A stretch of 64,000 bases of DNA from Podarcis cretensis (Eukaryota). The translations under genes were made by a program, and so were the position numbers. Positions 51,891 to 64,000 of this stretch are shown piece by piece; the first letter of the stretch is position 1, and the number at the start of each line of letters is the position of its first letter. The stretch lies in NCBI GenBank assembly GCA_951804945.1, contig OX638149.1, forward strand, positions 77,934,001 through 77,998,000. Reading direction: 5' to 3'. The notes below the pieces were generated by a model. It ran no database searches, had not been told where the DNA came from, and was given only the letters and a program-made list of their open reading frames with translations.

Positions 51891-54800
51891 CACGTCTGTA
51901 AATGGTTTCATTAATCTTGCAGAAACAGGCAGTTGGTGTTACTGGTACTGTCGTGGTTGGTTTGGGAGTGGTGGTGGTTGGGCTGGTTGTAGGTGGGCAA
52001 CGTGGGTTTACTTCACAGCACAACACCCGTATCTCATAATTCAAGCACTGCCTGAATTTCCCAATTTGCTCATCATTCTTGCAAACCAGTCCAGAATCAA
52101 CATTACACTCAACTTTCTGACCAAGCTGGTCAAGGCGGAGGTCAGGGTGATTTTCAGCCCTGCACTGGATGTTTGATGGCTTGGCACAGATTTTCCCTCC
52201 TACAGCCCGGATTTTGTTATACGTCTCAATGTCACCCCCGTTAGGTCCAGATGTGGGATAGTCAACATCAAACCAGTTGGTCCAGTGACATATAGGTCCA
52301 CAAGTTGTTGTTTCTGGAGAGGTGGAAGTTGTCTCGGTAGTGGTGGTGGTGACTGGCACAGTGGTTGTGGGCAAGGTGGTTGTGCTGACTGGCCGAGGTG
52401 TGGTGGTTGTCGTTGTTGGTTGTGTTGTGGTGGTTTTGGGTACTGTAGTTGTTAATGGTGTTGTGGTTGTTGTTTCTGGAGCTGTAGTGGTGGGTTTGGG
52501 AGTGGTGGTGGTTGTCGTTGTTGGTTGTGTTGTGGTGGTTTTTGGTGCTGTAGTTGTTACTGGTGTGGTGGTTGTTGTTTCTGGAGCTGTCGTGGTTGGT
52601 TTGGGAGTGGTGGTGGTTGGGATGGTTGTAGGTGGGCAACGTGGGTTTTCTTCACAGCACAACACCCGTATCTCATAATTCAAGCACTGCTTAAATTTCC
52701 CAATTTGCTCATCATTCTTGCACACCAGTCCAGAATCAACATTACACTCGACAACTTGACCAACCTGGTCAAGGCGGAGGTCAGGGTCATTTTCAGCCCT
52801 GCACTGGATGTTTGATGGTTTGGCACAGATCTTCTCTCCTGCATCACGGATCTTGTTATATGTCTCAATGTCACCCCCGTTTGGTCCGGAAGTGGGATAG
52901 TCAACATCAAACCAGTCGGTCCAGTGACATATAGGTCCACAAGTTGTTGTTTCTGGAGAGGTGGTAGTCGTCTCGGTAGTTGTGGTGGTGACTGGCACAG
53001 TGGTTGTGGGCAAGGTGGTTGTACTTACTGGCCGAGGTGTGGTGGTGGTGGTGGTGGTGGTTGTCGTTGTTGGTTGTGTTGTGGTGGTTTTTGGTGCTGT
53101 AGTTGTTACTGGTGTGGTGGTGGTTGTTTCTGGAGCTGTCGTGGTTGGTTTGGGAGTGGTGGTGGTTGGGATGGTTGTAGGTGGGCAACGTGGGTTTTCT
53201 TCACAGCACAACACCCGTATCTCATAATTCAAGCACTGCTTAAATTTCCCAATTTGCTCATCATTCTTGCACACCAGCCCAGAATCAACATTACACTTGA
53301 CAACTTGACCAACCTGGTCAAGGCGGAGGTCAGGGTCATTTTCAGCCCTGCACTGGATGTTTGATGGTTTGGCACAGATCTTCTCTCCTGCATCACGGAT
53401 CTTGTTATATGTCTCAATGTCACCCCCGTTTGGTCCGGAAGTGGGATAGTCAACATCAAACCAGTCGGTCCAGTGACATATAGGTCCACAAGTTGTTGTT
53501 TCTGGAGAGGTGGTAGTCGTCTCAGTAGTTGTGGTGGTGATTGGCACAGTGGTTGTGGGCAAGGTGGTTGTACTTACTGGCCGAGGTGTGGTGGTGGTGG
53601 TGGTGGTGGTCGTTGTTGGTTGTGTTGTGGTGGTTTTTGGTGCTGTAGTTGTTACTGGTGTGGTGGTGGTTGTTTCTGGAGCTGTCGTGGTTGGTTTGGG
53701 AGTGGTGGTGGTTGGGCTGGTTGTAGTTGGGCAACGTGGGTTTTCTTCACAGCACAACACCCGTATCTCATAATTCAAGCACTGCCTGATTTTCCCAATT
53801 TGCTCATCATTCTTGCAAACCAGTCCAGAATCAACATTACACTCAACTTTCTGACCAACCTGGTCAAGGCTGAGGCCAGGGTGATTTTCAGCCCTGCACT
53901 GGATGTTTGATGGCTTGGCACAGATCTTCCCTCCTGCAGCACGGATCTTGTTATATGTCTCAATGTCACCCCCGTTTGGTCCAGAAGTCGGATAGTCAAC
54001 ATCAAACCAGTCGGTCCACTGACATATAGGTCCACAGGTTGTTGTTTCTGGAGAGGTGGTAGTCGTCTCGGTAGTTGTGGTGGTGATTGGTACAGTGGTC
54101 GTGGGCAAGGTGGTTGTGCTTACTGGCCGAGGTGTAGTGGTGGTGGTGGTGGTTGTTTTTGGTTGCGTTGTGGTTGTTTTGGGTGCTGTAGTTGTTACTG
54201 GTGTGGTGGTGGTTGTTTCTGGAGATGTAGTGGTTGGTTTCGGAGTGGTGGTGGTGGTGGTTGTCGTCGTTGGCTGTGTTGTGGTGGTTTTGGGTGCTGT
54301 AGTTGTTACTGGTGTCGTGGTGGTTGTTTCTGGAGCTGTAGTGGTGGGTTTGGGAGTGGTGGTGGTTGTCGTTGTTGGTTGTGTTGTGGTGGTTTTGGGT
54401 GCAGTAGTTGTTACTGGTGTGGTGGTGGTTGTTTCTGGAGCAGTAGTGGTTGGTTTGGGAGTGGTGGTGGTTGGGATGGTTGTAGGTGGGCAACGTGGGT
54501 TTACTTCACAGCACAACACCCGTATCTCATAATTCAAGCACTGCCTGATTTTCCCAATTTGCTCATCATTCTTGCAAACCAGTCCAGAATCAACATTACA
54601 CTCAACTTTCTGACCAACCTGGTCAAGGCTGAGGCCAGGGTGATTTTCAGCCCTGCACTGGATGTTTGATGGCTTGGCACAGATCTTGCCACCTGCATCT
54701 CGGATGTTGTTATATGTCTCAATGTCACCCCCGTTTGGTCCGGAAGTGGGATAGTCAACATCAAACCAGTCGGTCCACTGACATATAGGTCCACAGGTTG

Positions 54801-57800
54801 TTGTTTCTGGAGAGGTGGTAGTCGTCTCGGTAGTTGTGGTGGTGATTGGTACAGTGGTCGTGGGCAAGGTGGTTGTGCTTACTGGCCGAGGTGTAGTGGT
54901 GGTGGTGGTTGTTGTTGTTGGTTGCGTTGTGGTTGTTTTGGGTGCTGTAGTTGTTACTGGTGTGGTGGTGGTTGTTTCTGGAGCTGTAGTGGTTGGTTTC
55001 GGAGTGGTGGTGGTGGTGGTTGTCGTCATTGGCTGTGTTGTGGTGGTTTTGGGTGCTGTAGTTGTTACTGGTGTCGTGGTGGTTGTTTCTGGAGCTGTAG
55101 CGGTGGGTTTGGGAGTGGTGGTGGTTGTCGTTGTTGGTTGTGTTGTGGTGGTTTTGGGTGCAGTAGTTGTTACTGGTGTGGTGGTGGTTGTTTCTGGAGC
55201 AGTAGTGGTTGGTTTGGGAGTGGTGGTGGTTGGGATGGTTGTAGGTGGGCAACGTGGGTTTACTTCACAGCACAACACCCGTATCTCATAATTCAAGCAC
55301 TGCCTGATTTTCCCAATTTGCTCATCATTCTTGCAAACCAGTCCAGAATCAACATTACACTCAACTTTCTGACCAACCTGGTCAAGGCTGAGGCCAGGGT
55401 GATTTTCAGCCCTGCACTGGATGTTTGATGGCTTGGCACAGATCTTCCCTCCTGCAGCACGGATCTTGTTATATGTCTCAATGTCACCCCCGTTAGGTCC
55501 AGATGTGGGATAGTCAACATCAAACCAGTCAGTCCAGTGACATATAGGTCCACAGGTTGTTGTTTCTGGAGAGGTGGTAGTCGTCTCAGTTGTTGTGGTA
55601 GTGACTGGCACAGTGGTTGTGGGCAAGGTGGTTGTGCTTACTGGTCGAGGTGTGGTGGTGGTGGTTGTCGTTGTTGGTTGTGTTGTGGTGGTTTTTGGTG
55701 CTGTAGTTGTTACTAGTGTTGTGGTTGTTGTTTCTGGAGCAGTAGTGGTTTGTTTAGGAGTGGTGGTGGTTGTTGTTGTTGGTTGCGTTGTGATGGTTTT
55801 GGGTGCTGTAGTTGTTACTGGTGTGGTGGTGGTTGTTTCTGGAGCTGTAGTGGTTGGTTTGGGAGTGGTGGTGGTTGTCGTTGTTGGTTGTGTTGTGGTG
55901 GTTTTGGGTGCAGTAGTTGTTACTGGTGTGGTGGTGGTTGTTTCTGGAGCAGTAGTGGTTGGTTTGGGAGTGGTGGTGGTTGGGATGGTTGTAGGTGGGC
56001 AACGTGGGTTTACTTCACAGCACAACACCCGTATCTCATAATTCAAGCACTGCTTGAATTCCCCAATTTGTTCATTATTCCTGCAAACTAGTCCAGAGTC
56101 AACATTACACTCTACTATCTGATCGAGTTGGTCAAGGCTGAGGTCAGGGTGATTTTCAGCCCTGCACTGGATGTTTGATGGCTTGGCACAGATCTTGCCA
56201 CCTGCATCTCGGATGTTGTTATATGTCTCAATGTCACCCCCATTAGGTCCAGAAGTGGGATAGTCAACATCAAACCAGTTGGTCCACTGACATATAGGTC
56301 CACAAGTTGTTGTTTCTGGAGAGGTGGTAGTCGTCTCGGTAGTTGTTGTGGTGACTGGTACAGTGGTCGTGGGCAAGGTGGTTGTGCTTACTGGCCGAGG
56401 TGTGGTGGTTGGTGTCGTTGTTGGCTGTTTTGTAGTGGTTTTGGGTTCTGTAGTTGTTACTGGTGTGGTGGTGGTCGTTTCTGGAGCTGTAGTTGTTGGT
56501 TTGGGAGTGGTGGTGGCACTGGTTGTTGTCACCATTGTAGTCCTTTCTGGTGTCATTCTAGGCAAAGTCGTGCTTACTACCACAGGTGTGGTGGTTGCTT
56601 TTGTTGTTGTGATGACACTGGTGGTTGTTTCCGTTGTCTGTGTTGTGGTGGTTTGCAATTTCGTAGTTGTTGCTGGCTTCGTTGTTGTAACTTCAGTTGT
56701 CGGCTTAGTTTTCGGTGTTTCAGGTTTTGTACTAATTAATGGTGTTGTCCTTGTTGTGACTTTTGTTGTTTGTAGAGGTTTAGTTGTGATTGATGTTGTT
56801 CCATTTAGTAGCGGTGCTTTTGATGGCTGTGTAGTTGTCTGAGTTCGTGTAATAATAGTCTTTTCTTTGGTAGTAGTTATTGGTGTTGATGCTATTGTGG
56901 TTGTTTTGCTGGTGGTTGTTGTTTGTGAGGTTGTAGTTAAAGGCTTTGTAGTTGTTAGTGGTCTGGTTGTTGGACATGGTACAATTATTTTTTCACAGCA
57001 TTCAATTCTTATCTCATAATTATAGCAAATTGGTGGAAGTTGTTCTTTGTTGTAACATATGAGTCCTTCTGTTTTACTACAAGTAACTTTTTGCTCTAAT
57101 TCATTTAGTGGTGTATCAGGATATCTTTCTGCTCTGCATTCAACATTTTTTGGTGCCTTACAGACTTTGTATCCTTTGGCTCGTATATTCTTAAATGTAT
57201 CAAAATCTCCATCATCTGGTGCGGATCCTGGGTAACTTATATCATACCACTGTGACCATTCACAAACTTCCTTAGTGCATTGTTCAGGTGTCGAAGGGAC
57301 TGTTGTTGAAATTGTTGTCGTTTCTAAACTTTTTGTTGTCTCTGGAACAGTTGTCACTGTTGTTGGTGACTGTGTTGTAGTTGGAGGTGTTGTGGTTAGT
57401 GTTGTTGCTTCAGAAGTAGTTGACACTATGGTTGTACCTTTTGTTGTAATTTGTGAGGTTGTTGATGTAGTTGTTGACACAGTTGGATGTGTTGTTTTTT
57501 TTGTTGTGGGTGTGGTTATAATTTTAGTTGTAGAAGGTGTTGTTTCAGTTGTAGTTTCTGGAATTGTAGTGGATGTTGTGGCTGTAGTAGTTGTGGTTGT
57601 AGATTTAGTAGTAGAAGGTGTGGTTGTGACTGTTGTTGTTTTTGGCTTAGTTGTCACTATTGATGTAGATGTTGTTTCTGGAGTTGTACTAGTAACTGTG
57701 GTAGTTACTGAAACAGTACTTGTGCTTGCTGTTGTAGTTTCTGGAGTGGTGGTTAAGCAGTCAGTATAACAGCAGTATACTTTGATCTGATAGTTATAAC

Positions 57801-58553
57801 ACATCTGCAAGATTCCTGACTGTTCCTCATTTTTGCAGACAAAGCCAAATGTCACATTGCACTGAACAGTTTGTCCAATTTCATCAATAGATTTCTCTGG
57901 ATATTTCTCTGCCCTGCATTCTATACGTTCAGGTTTTTGGCATATATCTTTTCCTGCAGCCTTAATGATGTCGTATGTTTCAAAATCCCCTTTGTTGTCC
58001 AAAGTGGGAAAGTGCACATCGTACCATTCAGTCCATTTACATGTGAGTTTACAAGGTGTTGACCGTGGTATTTCTGTTGTGGTTGCTGGGGTTGTAGTTG
58101 AGATGCTAGTTGTTTCGGTTACTACAGTTGTGGTAGGTGGTAGCTTTGGTGTTGTTACAGGAGTAGGAGTTGTTACAGGAAGAGTAGTTGGTGTTGTTGT
58201 GTGCGTAGTCCCAGGTGTCGATGCAGTAATGCCACATGGTTCAAAGCTACAACACTGGATTTTGATTTGATAATTGTGGCAGCTCATTGGATGCTGATCC
58301 TTGTTGTAACAGATTAGCCCCACTGTTTTACTGCATTCTACTTTCTGGCCCAGTTCACTTAATGGAGTATTGGGAAATTTCTCAGCTCTGCAGGCAACGG
58401 CCCTTGGAGCTCTGCAGACTTTATATCCTTCTGCTCGTAGTTTTTCAAAAGTATCAAAATCTCCATCATCATCTCCAGAGCCAGGCTGGCTCACATCATA
58501 CCACTGTGACCACTGGCATACTTCCTGAACACAAACGGATGTTGTTACAGGCA
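51891..58553 (-). CDS. MUC5AC: MUC5AC large central exon: 10 CysD (WxxW) domains interspersed with Thr/Pro-rich PTS domains
   Basis: Uninterrupted 6,663-bp ORF, CAG acceptor at 58554-56, GTAAGT donor; CysD signature CxWxxW.D...GD.ET...C.....CRA...C....GL.C.N..Q...C.NY.I...CC seen 10 times. Confidence 0.97.
51940..56515 (-). repeat. Higher-order coding tandem array: 7 near-identical CysD domains separated by 1-3 copies of a ~35-aa Thr-rich unit (PKPTTTAPETTTTTPVTTTAPKTTTTQPT(n))
   Basis: Spacing between successive CGPIC motifs: 750, 759, 759, 546, 549, 639 bp. Confidence 0.95.
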
Positions 58554-59820: not shown

Positions 59821-60051
59821 CTGCAGTAGTGGTTGCTGGTGAAGAGGTACTGGAAAAGTTAAAGACGGTAGTGGTTGGTGCAGTGGTGGTGGTGGTGGTT
59901 GTGGTGGGTGTTGTTGTGCATGGGAAGATATTCCTCTCTATTGTTCCATTCTTACTGCAAATCGCAGTGATGCACCCTCCAATGCCATCTGTTGTGTTGT
60001 AGATGACATCCCCCGGCTTGCTAATCTTCCCTTCATAGATGCAGTGGCATT
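59821..60051 (-). CDS. MUC5AC: MUC5AC exon (ECHCIYEGK...NTTDGIGGCITAICSKNGTIER..., first Thr-rich stretch)
   Basis: CAG acceptor, GTAAAA donor; 231 bp, phase 1->1. Confidence 0.92.
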
Positions 60052-60152
60052 CTGTCATTCAAAAGAAATTGTCAGCATTAAACTTCTTAAAATGTAAAAG
60101 GCTGTTCCAAATCACTCACAATTCGTATTAAAACTTAGCACTGAAAACATAC

Positions 60153-60199
60153 CAAGTTCATCGTATCGACACTCTGGTTTGCCAGCCATGGAACAATAG
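60153..60199 (-). CDS. MUC5AC: MUC5AC small exon (CYCSMAGKPECRYDEL)
   Basis: TAG acceptor, GTATG donor; 47 bp, phase 2->1, joins both neighbours in frame. Confidence 0.88.
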
Positions 60200-60475
60200 C
60201 TAAAAGGAAAGAAAATACATTTGAAGATAGTTAATTTTCTTTAGTGAGCAAAGAAGACACTATCAGCCCTCCTTATATTAGTTGTTGGCATCCGTCTGCC
60301 TCAAGAGACAATGGAGTGTGCCCTCAGGGGCATATACAACCAGTATAAAAGAATGTCTATGGAGGTGAAATTCTGAATAAACTACTACACTTGGATTGAG
60401 AAAGCAATTTTAGGCTTTGACTCTAATTGGTTTTACTCATTTACTCAGAACTAAATTCCATGACATCCAGTAGCA

Positions 60476-60685
60476 GATTGTGATCTACTGGTAGATCATT
60501 GAACGTCTGTGGTAGATCACTGTCAGATCACAGGCTCCCCCCAAAAGAAGCTCCCCTAAAGAAAGCGTTCCTCCTCCCTAAAAAAGCTCAACAACTTAGA
60601 CTAGAACCCCCCAAAAGGTGGTAGATCACTGCCGGTTTCTAACTCTGAGAGTAGATCACAGTCTCTCGGGAGTTGGCCATCCCGG
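60476..60685. mobile_element. Non-autonomous DNA transposon fragment (hAT-like) with repeated GTAGATCAC subterminal motifs
   Basis: Several copies of GTAGATCA(C/T); right end GTTGGCCATCCCGG. Confidence 0.55.
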
Positions 60686-61788
60686 CAGTAGAGCTTCCAT
60701 TTTCCAGGTGAGTGTGTGAAAGACTGCATCTTACTTGCTGTTGGAAGGAAGTTCCATTGAAATAAATGGACTGCACTTCAAAGTAAATGGAATTAAAATT
60801 GAATCATTTATCTTTTTGGTTCCACAGGGAACATCCAATGATTAACTCTAATTTTCTTTTTGTAAAAGCAGATACCCCCTTCCCCCCAACAATTGGTATA
60901 TTGGCTGTTGTTTAGAAGGTGGGGCTAACTGATGATTCCCAGGTAAGGTCCTCCCCCTATTGTGTGGGCAGGTGGTCCCTCCCCCTACTTGGCCTGATCA
61001 CCTTGGCAACGCCTCCCCAGGCGGGATTGGGCAACTGGCTGAGGTAGGCGGAGACCTCCAGGTATCCCACCTGGAGAAGGCGAAGCCAAGCCTGTGCTAA
61101 TGGTGCCACATAGGGTCCAGGGGGCTGCGCGCGACCACACAAAGGGCTTACTTAATGTGGGGAGCGGTCATTCCTAAAGCTGATTTGGTTGGTTATTCAT
61201 TCTACTAATCAGCATGGACAATGGCTGTGTATATAACAAACATTTAAAGCAAATCTCCCCCTGAAAGAATCTTGGGAACTGTGGTTTACCCCCAGAACTA
61301 AAATTCCCAGCACACTTAACAAACTACAGATCCCACGAATCTTTGGGGTTGGGAATGTGCTTTCAATGTGCTTTCAATGTATGGTGTGTACACAGCCCTA
61401 AATATCAGAATCTGTCCCTATATAAAAGGAAGAAGTACAGTACGTAGGATAGTAGAGAATCCTCACCAGAACCTACAGAAGAGGAGAAACAAATTAGCTG
61501 AGTGAAAGTGAAGAAAAGAGCAGTAGTAATTTCACTAGAGCCTTCAGGCAAACTTTCTTTCTACCGCAGTAGAAGTTCAAAAAGAGGTGGGCAGGAGAGA
61601 AGAATGGAACCCATATTATAATGTAGTAAGACATGCTGGAGCAGATTAATCCTAAGGAGAACATTTCCAAACTTTGCCTTCTCAAACCTGTTTCTGCAGT
61701 ATGAAATAGAGCATGCTATGCCTCTGCACAACTTTAAACAATTTTACATTCACATTCTCATTCTCATCATTTGAAAGACAAGCATTAC

Positions 61789-61939
61789 CATGATTCACAG
61801 CTCTTTTGTGAAGGCATTTTTTCTCCTGGTTTATAGTGGTTTCCTTTGCCATCAAAGCAGCCGCATGCTGGAAGATCAACACACTGCATCTCATCTTCAT
61901 CAAAATAGGGCTTATCAGCTGGACACTTTGGATAGCAGC
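61789..61939 (-). CDS. MUC5AC: MUC5AC exon (end of D3 assembly: GCYPKCPADKPYFDEDEMQCVDLPACGCFDGKGNHYKPGEKMPSQKSCES)
   Basis: CAG acceptor at 61940-42, GTAATG donor; 151 bp, phase 1->2; Cys pattern typical of mucin E3 region. Confidence 0.92.
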
Positions 61940-62027
61940 CTGTGGTAAGAAAGAGAGCTTTTATCATACCCTGTACAAATGTTAGCCTTTAAGCTGATTT
62001 TGTGTATGGTGCTGTCACACCATAAAC

Positions 62028-62164
62028 CAGGGATGAGGAAGCTTTGGCCTCCATACATTGCTGGACTCAAGCTCCCATCAGTCATAGCCAGCATGGCCAA
62101 GGGTCAGGAATGATGGGAACTGTAGTTCAACAACATCTGGAGGGCCACAGGCTGCCCATCCCTG
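62028..62164. mobile_element. hAT-type MITE
   Basis: CAGGGATG...CATCCCTG termini with internal GGCCTCCA/TGGAGGGCC inverted arms; same family as 15495-15626. Confidence 0.7.
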
Positions 62165-62432
62165 CCATATCTTGATCTCAAGCAACTGTCATTTAGCAAG
62201 GCTGGGGCTCAGGAGAAGAGGCCATGGATGCAGAGGGAATCTCTTGACCAAAAGGAAGATTGACCTCAGAACCAGCTTTAGACATTCCTGCCTCCTTGGG
62301 TGTTCTAGCATCAAAAGAGCACATGATGCCTGCACCTCTCCACCTTGAAGAAGTTGCCTTGTCTTCCTCGAACTCTGGTCTCCAGCTTAGAGGCAAGAAC
62401 TGAACCTTGGTCTCCCCCAAGCTTCCAAAGTG

Positions 62433-63400
62433 AATAATAATAATAATAATAATTTATTATTTATACCCCGCCCATCTGGCTGGGCCTCCCCAGCCACTCT
62501 GGGCGGCTTCCATAGAAAGCAAAAATACAATAAAATATCACACGTTAAAAACTTCCCTGAACTGCCTTAAGATGTCTTAAGAATGTCAGGTAGTTGTTTA
62601 TCGCTTTGACATCTGCTGGAAGGGCATTCCACAGGGCGGGCGCCACTACCAAGAAGGCCCTCTGCCTGGTTCCCTGTAGCTTTACTTCTCGCAATGAGGG
62701 AACCGTCAGAAGGCCCTCGGTGCTAGACCTCAGCGTCCGGGCAGAATGATGGGGGTGGAGACGCTCCTTCAGGTATACTGGACTGAGGCCGTTTAGGGCT
62801 TTAAAGGTCAGCACCAACACTTTGAATTGTGCTCGGAAACGTACTGGGAGCCAATGTAGGTCTTTCAAGACCGGTGTTATATGGTCTCGGCGGCTGCCCC
62901 CAGTCACCAGTCTAGCTGCCGTATTCTGGATTAGTTGTAGTTTCCGAGTCACCTTCAAAGGTAGCCCCACGTAGAGTGCATTGCAGTAGTCCAAGCGGGA
63001 GATAACCAGAGCATGCACCACTCTGGCGAGACAGTCCGCAGGCAGATAGGGTTTCAGCCTACGTACCAGATGGAGCTGGTAAACAGCTGCCCTGGACACT
63101 GATTTGACCTGTGCCTCCATGGACAGCTGTGAGTCCAAAATGACTCCCAGGCTGCGCACCTGGTCCTTCAGGGGCACCGTTACCCCATTCAGGACCAGGG
63201 AATCCTCCACACCTGCCCACCTCCTGTCCCCCCAAAACAGCACTTCTGTCTTGTCAGGATTCAACCTCAATCTGTTAGCCGTCATCCATCCTCCAACCGC
63301 CTCCAGACACTCACACAGGACCTTCACCGCCTTCACTGGTTCTGATTTAAAAGAGAGGTAGAGCTGGGTATCATCCGCATACTGATGAACACCCAGCCCA
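62433..63400 (-). mobile_element. L2-clade LINE, 5'-truncated, relatively young (RT C-terminal half largely open), (TTA)n tail
   Basis: YADDTQLY at about 63360-63381; ORF with LNPDKTE, RSLGVILD, SRLDYCN, LHWLP motifs. Confidence 0.92.
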
Positions 63401-63708
63401 CCTAGTGGCTGGGCCTCTTTTAACTGTAAGGGATCTATGCATCAGGGAAGAAGTTAGCTTCCCAAACAAAGCAACAATCCTACTTAAGGCTCAGTCCAGG
63501 ATAGTTGGGTGCTGGAACAACAGTCCAGCCTAGATTTCACTTGGAGCTAACTAGGGTTTTACTACTATGTTTATTTGCTCATCTGCCTTTTTGGACCCCA
63601 ACCACTGCTTTACTTGACTCTGTTTATCTGGACCTACTCTCTACTTTGCTGGAATGACCTCAGTGGAACCTGATCTGTGTTTTACTTTGCCTGACCCCGA
63701 TCATCAGA

Positions 63709-63740
63709 ATACTTACCTGGCAGGGGAGACACCTTGATCA
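63709..63740 (+). pseudogene. RNU1: 3'-truncated U1 snRNA retro-fragment (nt 1-32) with 12-bp target-site duplication
   Basis: ATACTTACCTGGCAGGGGAGACACCTTGATCA matches the U1 5' end; flanked by GATCATCAGAAT at 63699-63710 and 63736-63747. Confidence 0.9.
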
Positions 63741-64000
63741 TCAGAATCTGACCTTGCCTGGCTGAAACCCAATCTCTGCTTGATCTGGCTTTGCTTCTGG
63801 ATCCCAGACAGGGACGAGCAGTATGTGACCTTGAATTTTCTGTGTAGCACATGTATCCACTGGGCTAGATCCTGTCCCCTTGACTGGGACAAAACAGTAA
63901 CTTCCCTTTCCCTAAACCAAACTTCCCATATTCACAAAGCATCAAGCATTTTGTTTTGGGCAACCACAGTTTTTATAACAATTAATATAAAATGAAGCTT

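Follow-up and report, generated by a model that had tools for sequence, protein, structure and literature searches.

The window, by which we mean the whole stretch of 64,000 nt analyzed here, carries on its minus strand a gel-forming mucin gene of the MUC5 type. The first-pass annotation had labelled this gene MUC5AC; the MUC5 type stands, and the exon and CysD matches are split between MUC5AC and MUC5B. The exon below the insertion described here matches MUC5B best (E = 1e-11, vs 3e-7 for MUC5AC), and the CysD domains match MUC5AC best (4e-35, vs 2e-31 for MUC5B). That next real mucin exon spans 61789–61939 (minus strand) and is entered in phase 1, and the exon upstream lies beyond 64000. Further along the gene, a large exon (51891–58553, minus strand) contains an open frame of ∼2220 codons, in which about ten CysD domains alternate with threonine-rich repeats, the later CysD-containing units being near-identical tandem units.

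The intron upstream of exon 61789–61939 has a nested repeat structure. A host repeat at 62187–63896 (no strand assigned) has TG...CA ends and 5-nt flanks that agree at four of five positions; it is likely a solo LTR. It encloses a 5′-truncated LINE (62433–63399, minus strand), presumably L2-like. This is a 3′ fragment that ends in (AAT)n and keeps a 298-aa frame open, and the frame gives a weak RVT_1 match (E = 1e-5) under the Pfam cut-off. Outside the host repeat, a short palindromic repeat at 62028–62169 has six or more relatives within the window. An Rfam search of 60000–64000 returned 12 weak matches, among them one to mir-5408 at 62055–62136 (34.5 bits against a cut-off of 90); this match was set aside because the sequence recurs several times in the window, and the element is likely a MITE or SINE rather than a microRNA.

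Near the end of the host repeat lies the insertion that concerns us. Positions 63709–63740 (plus strand, antisense to the mucin gene) correspond to nt 1–32 of U1 snRNA, without a poly(A) tail, and are flanked by an exact 12-nt direct repeat. The left copy (63699–63710) shares its last 2 nt with U1 nt 1–2, and the right copy (63736–63747) shares its first 5 nt with U1 nt 28–32; neither side can be extended, and the 12-mer occurs at these two sites only in the window. The identity, the repeat and both overlaps had been proposed from inspection of the letters, and all were borne out.

As reference for U1 we used six metagenome loci retrieved with a 25-nt pattern from the window, whose first 32 nt are the same in all six; Rfam recognizes four of them as full-length U1 (163–165 bits), one ends with its contig, and one is truncated. 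Against the full-length locus L002 the insert matches at 31 of 32 positions, the sole mismatch being nt 26, and past nt 32 the sequence departs from U1. On the insert itself Rfam gives 15 bits (E = 0.036), recognizing no more than nt 1–12. According to the Rfam structure line, nt 32 falls inside the loop of stem-loop I. The window holds no further U1 parts beyond chance matches of 10–12 nt.

A chance match is ruled out, since the next-best match to U1 nt 1–32 in the window reaches 19/32 and the best over 100 shuffles 22/32. Exact 12-mers spaced 30–45 nt apart occur outside the mucin repeat exon at four places (31 seed hits); three are clusters of overlapping hits resembling simple repeats, and the fourth, a single hit, is the repeat around the insert. 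A local tandem duplication that merely looks like U1 is ruled out by the 31/32 identity together with the empty site described below.

We compared the locus (63375–64000) with contig sets from four of 24 runs, none of them RNA: X2 and X3 are further samples of the species itself, here species A, while X5 is from sister species B and X6 from sister species C. The RNA data among the 24 runs all come from species other than A: four raw RNA runs and three of six RNA-like rows belong to species C, whose site is empty, and the other three rows to species D–F; the small shares of these six rows (0.13–0.15) may reflect the LINE. The first-pass annotation had called for an empty site in related lizards, and all four runs show one, with the repeat in a single copy and the insert missing, which supports retro-insertion. 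In each of X2, X3, and X5 one long contig leaves out precisely 37 nt, and 12, 12, and 11 letters, respectively, fit both sides; in X6 a contig passes the left repeat and leads from 63710 to 63762 through 13 letters that start as the right flank does. The single repeat copy at the empty site identifies the 12-nt repeat as a true target-site duplication.

No contig in any of the four runs carries a junction of the filled allele, a result to be read in light of the fact that contigs can lose rare alleles. Read depth points the same way: in bins 63669–63689 and 63753–63773 it equals, in all four runs, the empty-site contig plus the listed paralog pieces (for X2, 78.4 + 67.2 × 17/21 = 132.8 and 78.4 + 77.1 = 155.5), and bin depths that are thus fully explained leave no room for a filled junction. 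Since neither the two further species A samples nor either sister species carries the insert, it postdates the separation of the species and does not qualify as a conserved regulatory element. It is recent and likely unfixed, and its frequency is presumably low, judging from the two other same-species samples compared; the filled allele is known from the window assembly alone. Its absence in other individuals is equally compatible with a young neutral allele and with a harmful one.

The LINE is present in both species A runs and absent at the site in B and C, where the X5 and X6 contigs start at 63399. The order of insertion is host repeat, then LINE, then U1 piece. Diverged paralog pieces of the host repeat occur in the relatives (63673–63710, 63746–63793, 63797–63831, and 63861–63897). 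A fixed U1-derived component of the host repeat is ruled out, as the orthologous host copies in B and C are empty.

These features place the insert in the known class of tailless retropseudogenes, of which it is a young and clean lizard example. The screen of Noll 2015 (PMC5322556) admits copies with at most 5 nt missing at the 5′ end, a 3′ truncation of at least 10 nt, a length of at least 30 nt, an identity above 69%, and a duplication of 8–35 nt. The present copy starts at U1 nt 1, spans 32 of the 164 nt of U1 at 31/32 identity, and has an exact 12-nt duplication that is single at the empty site in four of four runs. It is also tailless, ends at a single-stranded position, and shows complementarity at the 3′ junction, where the repeat abuts the insert with an overlap of 5 nt. 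This combination of 5′ completeness, truncation in a loop, duplication, and junction complementarity without a tail is shared with the copies described by Noll et al. 2015 (PMC5322556) and Doucet et al. 2015 (PMC4476161). The L1 endonuclease target TT/AAAA (TT/WAAAAWW), in contrast, is absent at the insertion nick, where the context reads CCCC|GATCATCAGAAT (CCCC|GATC). Because of this context, and because lizards have several LINE systems, we do not claim L1 as the enzyme.

The published model has reverse transcription primed internally in single-stranded loops with complementarity at the junction (PMC5322556). Applied here, a LINE reverse transcriptase at a staggered break would prime in the unpaired loop of U1 stem-loop I, and the 5 nt that target and U1 have in common at the 3′ junction would be the putative priming microhomology; target-primed reverse transcription and the LINE enzyme are steps that we infer. 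The origin of the copy is supported directly by its identity as U1, the lack of a tail, the end in the loop, the exact 12-nt duplication, the 5-nt junction match, the empty site, and the other U1 pieces reported below. We hold with high confidence that this is a recent tailless copy of U1 nt 1–32, likely made along these lines.

Within its class the copy has some features of its own. Human tailless U1 copies (PMC5322556) number 13 (against 666 for U2), are each 35–41 nt long, and end in the same loop; the present copy ends 3–9 nt earlier, at nt 32, on a 5-nt match that is not A-rich. Its target is unlike TT/AAAA, and its empty site exists within the species. The anole figures comprise 63 U2 and eight 5S tailless copies, with U1 unlisted (PMC5322556), and 25 3′-truncated U6 copies (PMC4476161).

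Two other kinds of U1-associated element were considered and rejected. The crocodilian SINEU (Kojima 2015, PMC4494074), a self-amplifying family built from a U1 or U2 head and a shared body or tail, has in common with the insert a U1-derived 5′ part, a reptilian host, and a position inside another repeat. The insert, in contrast, lacks body and tail, measures 37 nt in all including one repeat copy, and shows no sign of self-copying, and the flanks of other U1 copies are unrelated (agreement ∼0.5–0.6 among the rows listed). An snRNA gene split by a site-specific element of the Keno type, which would have the rest of the gene beyond a large insert, was rejected because here the inserted sequence is the U1 piece and no remainder of U1 lies in the window. 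Dada and Utopia are further site-specific elements that interrupt snRNA genes.

Each of the four runs contains further U1 5′ pieces in unrelated flanks, stopping at ∼nt 32–36. Among the 32 pieces listed of 188, at least 14 span only 63706/63711 to 63740/63746, with one to three differing letters, and nearly all of these lie in long contigs; part-aligned records number 16–19 per run. Loose ends behind 63740–63743 occur, among the 24 rows listed of 62, in at least 10, 8, 9, and 9 contigs of the four runs, and their agreement with the flank (0.47–0.67 among the rows listed) marks these flanks as unrelated. Several loose ends start with CGAA or GAA, and human U1 stem-loop I continues in a CGAA/GAA-like way past nt 32 (PMC10404622). 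Because these ends begin as human U1 goes on, the likely end point of many copies is near nt 36, and a few may extend further.

Summed depth over the U1 stretch is 130–415 times that of a single-copy contig, a value to which real U1 genes contribute and which hence gives no copy number. Set against the human figures of 13 U1 and 666 U2 copies (PMC5322556), U1-type pieces look numerous in these genomes, where tailless U1 may be much more abundant than in human. Separately, one of the metagenome contigs (L005, positions 9–55) follows U1 for ∼47 nt and then turns into unrelated sequence, another truncated or interrupted U1.

At 63734 (U1 nt 26) the insert has T where all six fetched U1 loci have A, a position that base pairs in stem-loop I. 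The change may reflect a local U1 with a compensating change at nt 39, or copies made from a variant U1. Because most aligned records in the relatives are at least 99% alike (60/77, 27/39, 19/35, and 20/33, with differences at contig ends unlisted) and no alternative letter is listed at this position, T is probably the form that U1 takes locally.

On the mucin strand the insert reads as a splice donor, CAG|GTAAGTAT (63709–63719, minus strand), with the exon ending at 63717 and an AG|GT core of the shape of a recursive site. The claim that the minus-strand letters CCAG|GTAAGTAT fully complement the U1 5′ end proved correct, with 11 of 11 positions paired. At −14.0 kcal/mol against U1 nt 1–11 it is the strongest donor in the gene (14 real donors: −3.2 to −10.7) and ranks first against 1163 non-mapped GT sites; in the empty allele, the best donor within 300 nt of the candidate acceptor reaches −6.1. 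Splice scores here and below come from a home-made model trained on hand-mapped sites (15 acceptors, 14 donors) against a background that holds some unmapped real exons, and are rough. The perfect donor needs no explanation of its own, since any antisense U1 5′ end necessarily reads as one. It is likely an unselected by-product that would have little effect on most transcripts.

Upstream on the mucin strand, the first-pass annotation had paired this donor with an acceptor whose AG lies at 63885–84, defining a 167-nt pseudo-exon with TGATGA in the incoming phase-1 frame. The positions are as claimed: the candidate exon (63717–63883, minus strand) shifts the frame and carries stops in the incoming frame (TGATGA at 63743–63738). 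The proposed acceptor (63884–63900, minus strand), antisense of the end of the host repeat and already there in the empty allele, has eight pyrimidines among the ten letters adjoining its AG, is borderline in score, and lacks a branch-point motif. Its score of 0.9 stands at the level of the weakest of the 15 real acceptors (0.7–8.7, leave-one-out). Among the other, non-mapped AGs, 91 of 1386 score as high, which puts it in the top 7%. YTNAY is the branch-point consensus; none occurs within 60 nt of the candidate acceptor, and 13 of the 15 real acceptors carry one. The AG-free zone measures 15 nt, against 16 to 38 or more in real acceptors, and the sequence upstream is rich in purines. The pyrimidine tract lies in a 7-bp stem of the minimum-energy fold, which is ordinary overall (z = −0.14). 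At the candidate's thresholds the gene offers 37 latent acceptor–donor pairs, namely the candidate, nine that overlap probable real exons, and 27 others. In B and C the sequence near the acceptor varies freely, with changes at 63881, 63882, and 63890. Elsewhere in the gene, the real minus-strand acceptor at 60051 has a very poor pyrimidine tract and a score of 0.7; because it is used at that score, the candidate's 0.9 does not preclude use.

One reading built on these elements is that the new donor recruits the acceptor at 63885–84 (or a weaker one at 63798–97), so that part of the transcripts from carriers would include the 167-nt stop-bearing exon. Such transcripts would likely be removed by NMD, making the insertion mildly harmful rather than regulatory. 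The gain in donor strength over the empty allele, the exon length, the in-frame stops, and the rank and pyrimidine content of the acceptor all speak for this reading, and the literature offers precedents. Among 359 catalogued mutations behind human pseudoexons, gains of a donor form the largest group with 210 (PMC8819188), and nested repeats are a known source of exons (PMC7951965). With the deep-intronic pseudoexons and repeat-derived exons of these two sources, the locus shares a strong new donor 167 nt below a latent acceptor, a repeat setting, and premature stops. It differs from them in that the donor was delivered whole by a U1 copy, pairs over up to 32 rather than 11 nt, and has an inclusion that is predicted. 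Against the reading stand the level of the acceptor, its short AG-free zone, the purine-rich upstream sequence, the missing YTNAY, and the stem that holds the tract; in addition, strong cryptic sites often go unused (PMC7951965). On balance we consider accidental inclusion of the exon rather unlikely, yet a serious possibility.

The complementarity extends well past the 11 nt of a donor. For naked full-length U1 (three loci, proteins ignored), the predicted net binding is −15.3 kcal/mol when 11 nt pair, −41 to −43 when 25 nt do, and −48 to −51 when all 32 do. A 21-nt part of the insert's minus strand occurs verbatim in the text of 33 papers, and a 25-nt antisense oligo to this U1 end blocks binding of U1-70K (PMC10404622); we infer that the 21-nt string found in the papers belongs to that oligo. 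The mucin pre-mRNA would thus carry the complement of the U1 end targeted by the 25-nt morpholino (PMC10404622), with the difference that the insert's strand is natural RNA, acts in cis in one copy per transcript, and has an effect that is predicted.

From this pairing one could imagine the insert as an antisense trap for U1 in cis, in which 25–32 nt of pairing would open stem-loop I and leave the snRNP stalled or disarmed, or as a recursive site of zero length, with AG|GT as a stepping stone and a branch point supplied by the duplicated target. The predicted energies and the blocking of U1-70K would suit the trap, and a branch-like CTGAT in the right repeat (minus strand, A at 63741), at −25 from the insert's AG, would suit recursive use. 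The energies ignore proteins, however, and U1 is so abundant that one site per transcript cannot titrate its pool, which counts against a trap. Recursive use is opposed by the insert's own AG, whose score of −2.1 lies below all 15 real acceptors, and by the weak donors downstream of it (best −6.1 within 300 nt; −8.7 at 63402). On whether extended pairing with U1 helps or hinders splicing, published results conflict (PMC9311317). We regard either function as quite improbable.

It is more improbable still that the 37 letters are an assembly artefact or arrived by another route, such as repair capture of a U1 cDNA or template switching during LTR copying. Such explanations draw on a target off the L1 consensus, the position of the insert inside an LTR-like repeat, and the restriction of the filled allele to one assembly. 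An artefact, however, would not yield a clean start at nt 1, an end in the loop, and an exact duplication of a proven empty site, and the empty orthologous host copy in B and C dates the insert to long after the host repeat, which speaks against the other routes. An evolved regulatory element under selection, whether poison exon or U1-loading site, is the least credible reading, favored only by the ideal donor and the in-frame stops, both of which follow necessarily from the insert's origin, and opposed by its absence in all four runs, two of the same species, and by the variable acceptor letters in B and C.

We lean towards reading the locus as a recent, likely unfixed, tailless U1 copy whose perfect donor would be an unselected, near-neutral by-product. 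The weak acceptor, the missing branch motif, and the 27 other latent pairs in the gene favor near-neutrality; what counts against it is that no other donor in the gene is as strong and that donor gains are the top trigger of human pseudoexons. Given an origin as a retrocopy, the absence of a material effect on splicing seems to us somewhat probable. In the literature searched, which included few subscription papers, we found no antisense U1 retrocopies acting as splice donors.

A broader view would have tailless U1 5′ copies still spreading, with tens or more per genome, the antisense intronic ones acting as splice mutagens that are purged relative to sense and U2 copies. Each of these would combine a perfect donor, a recursive AG|GT, and a natural antisense strand to U1, and the mucin allele would be a segregating example that adds a poison exon or traps U1. 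We think this unlikely. If true, such copies would form a natural test of whether over-long pairing with U1 promotes or blocks splicing.

The insert is usable as a presence/absence marker and is a sign that tailless retroposition, off the L1 consensus, is still active in this lizard. The LINE offers a second such marker at the species level, and the nested triple provides a three-step marker for dating. If the effect on splicing were real, U1 would be seeding introns with the very sequence it recognizes, thereby giving rise to new exons and damaging splicing, and the numerous copies that have both an empty and a filled allele could test pairing beyond 11 nt.
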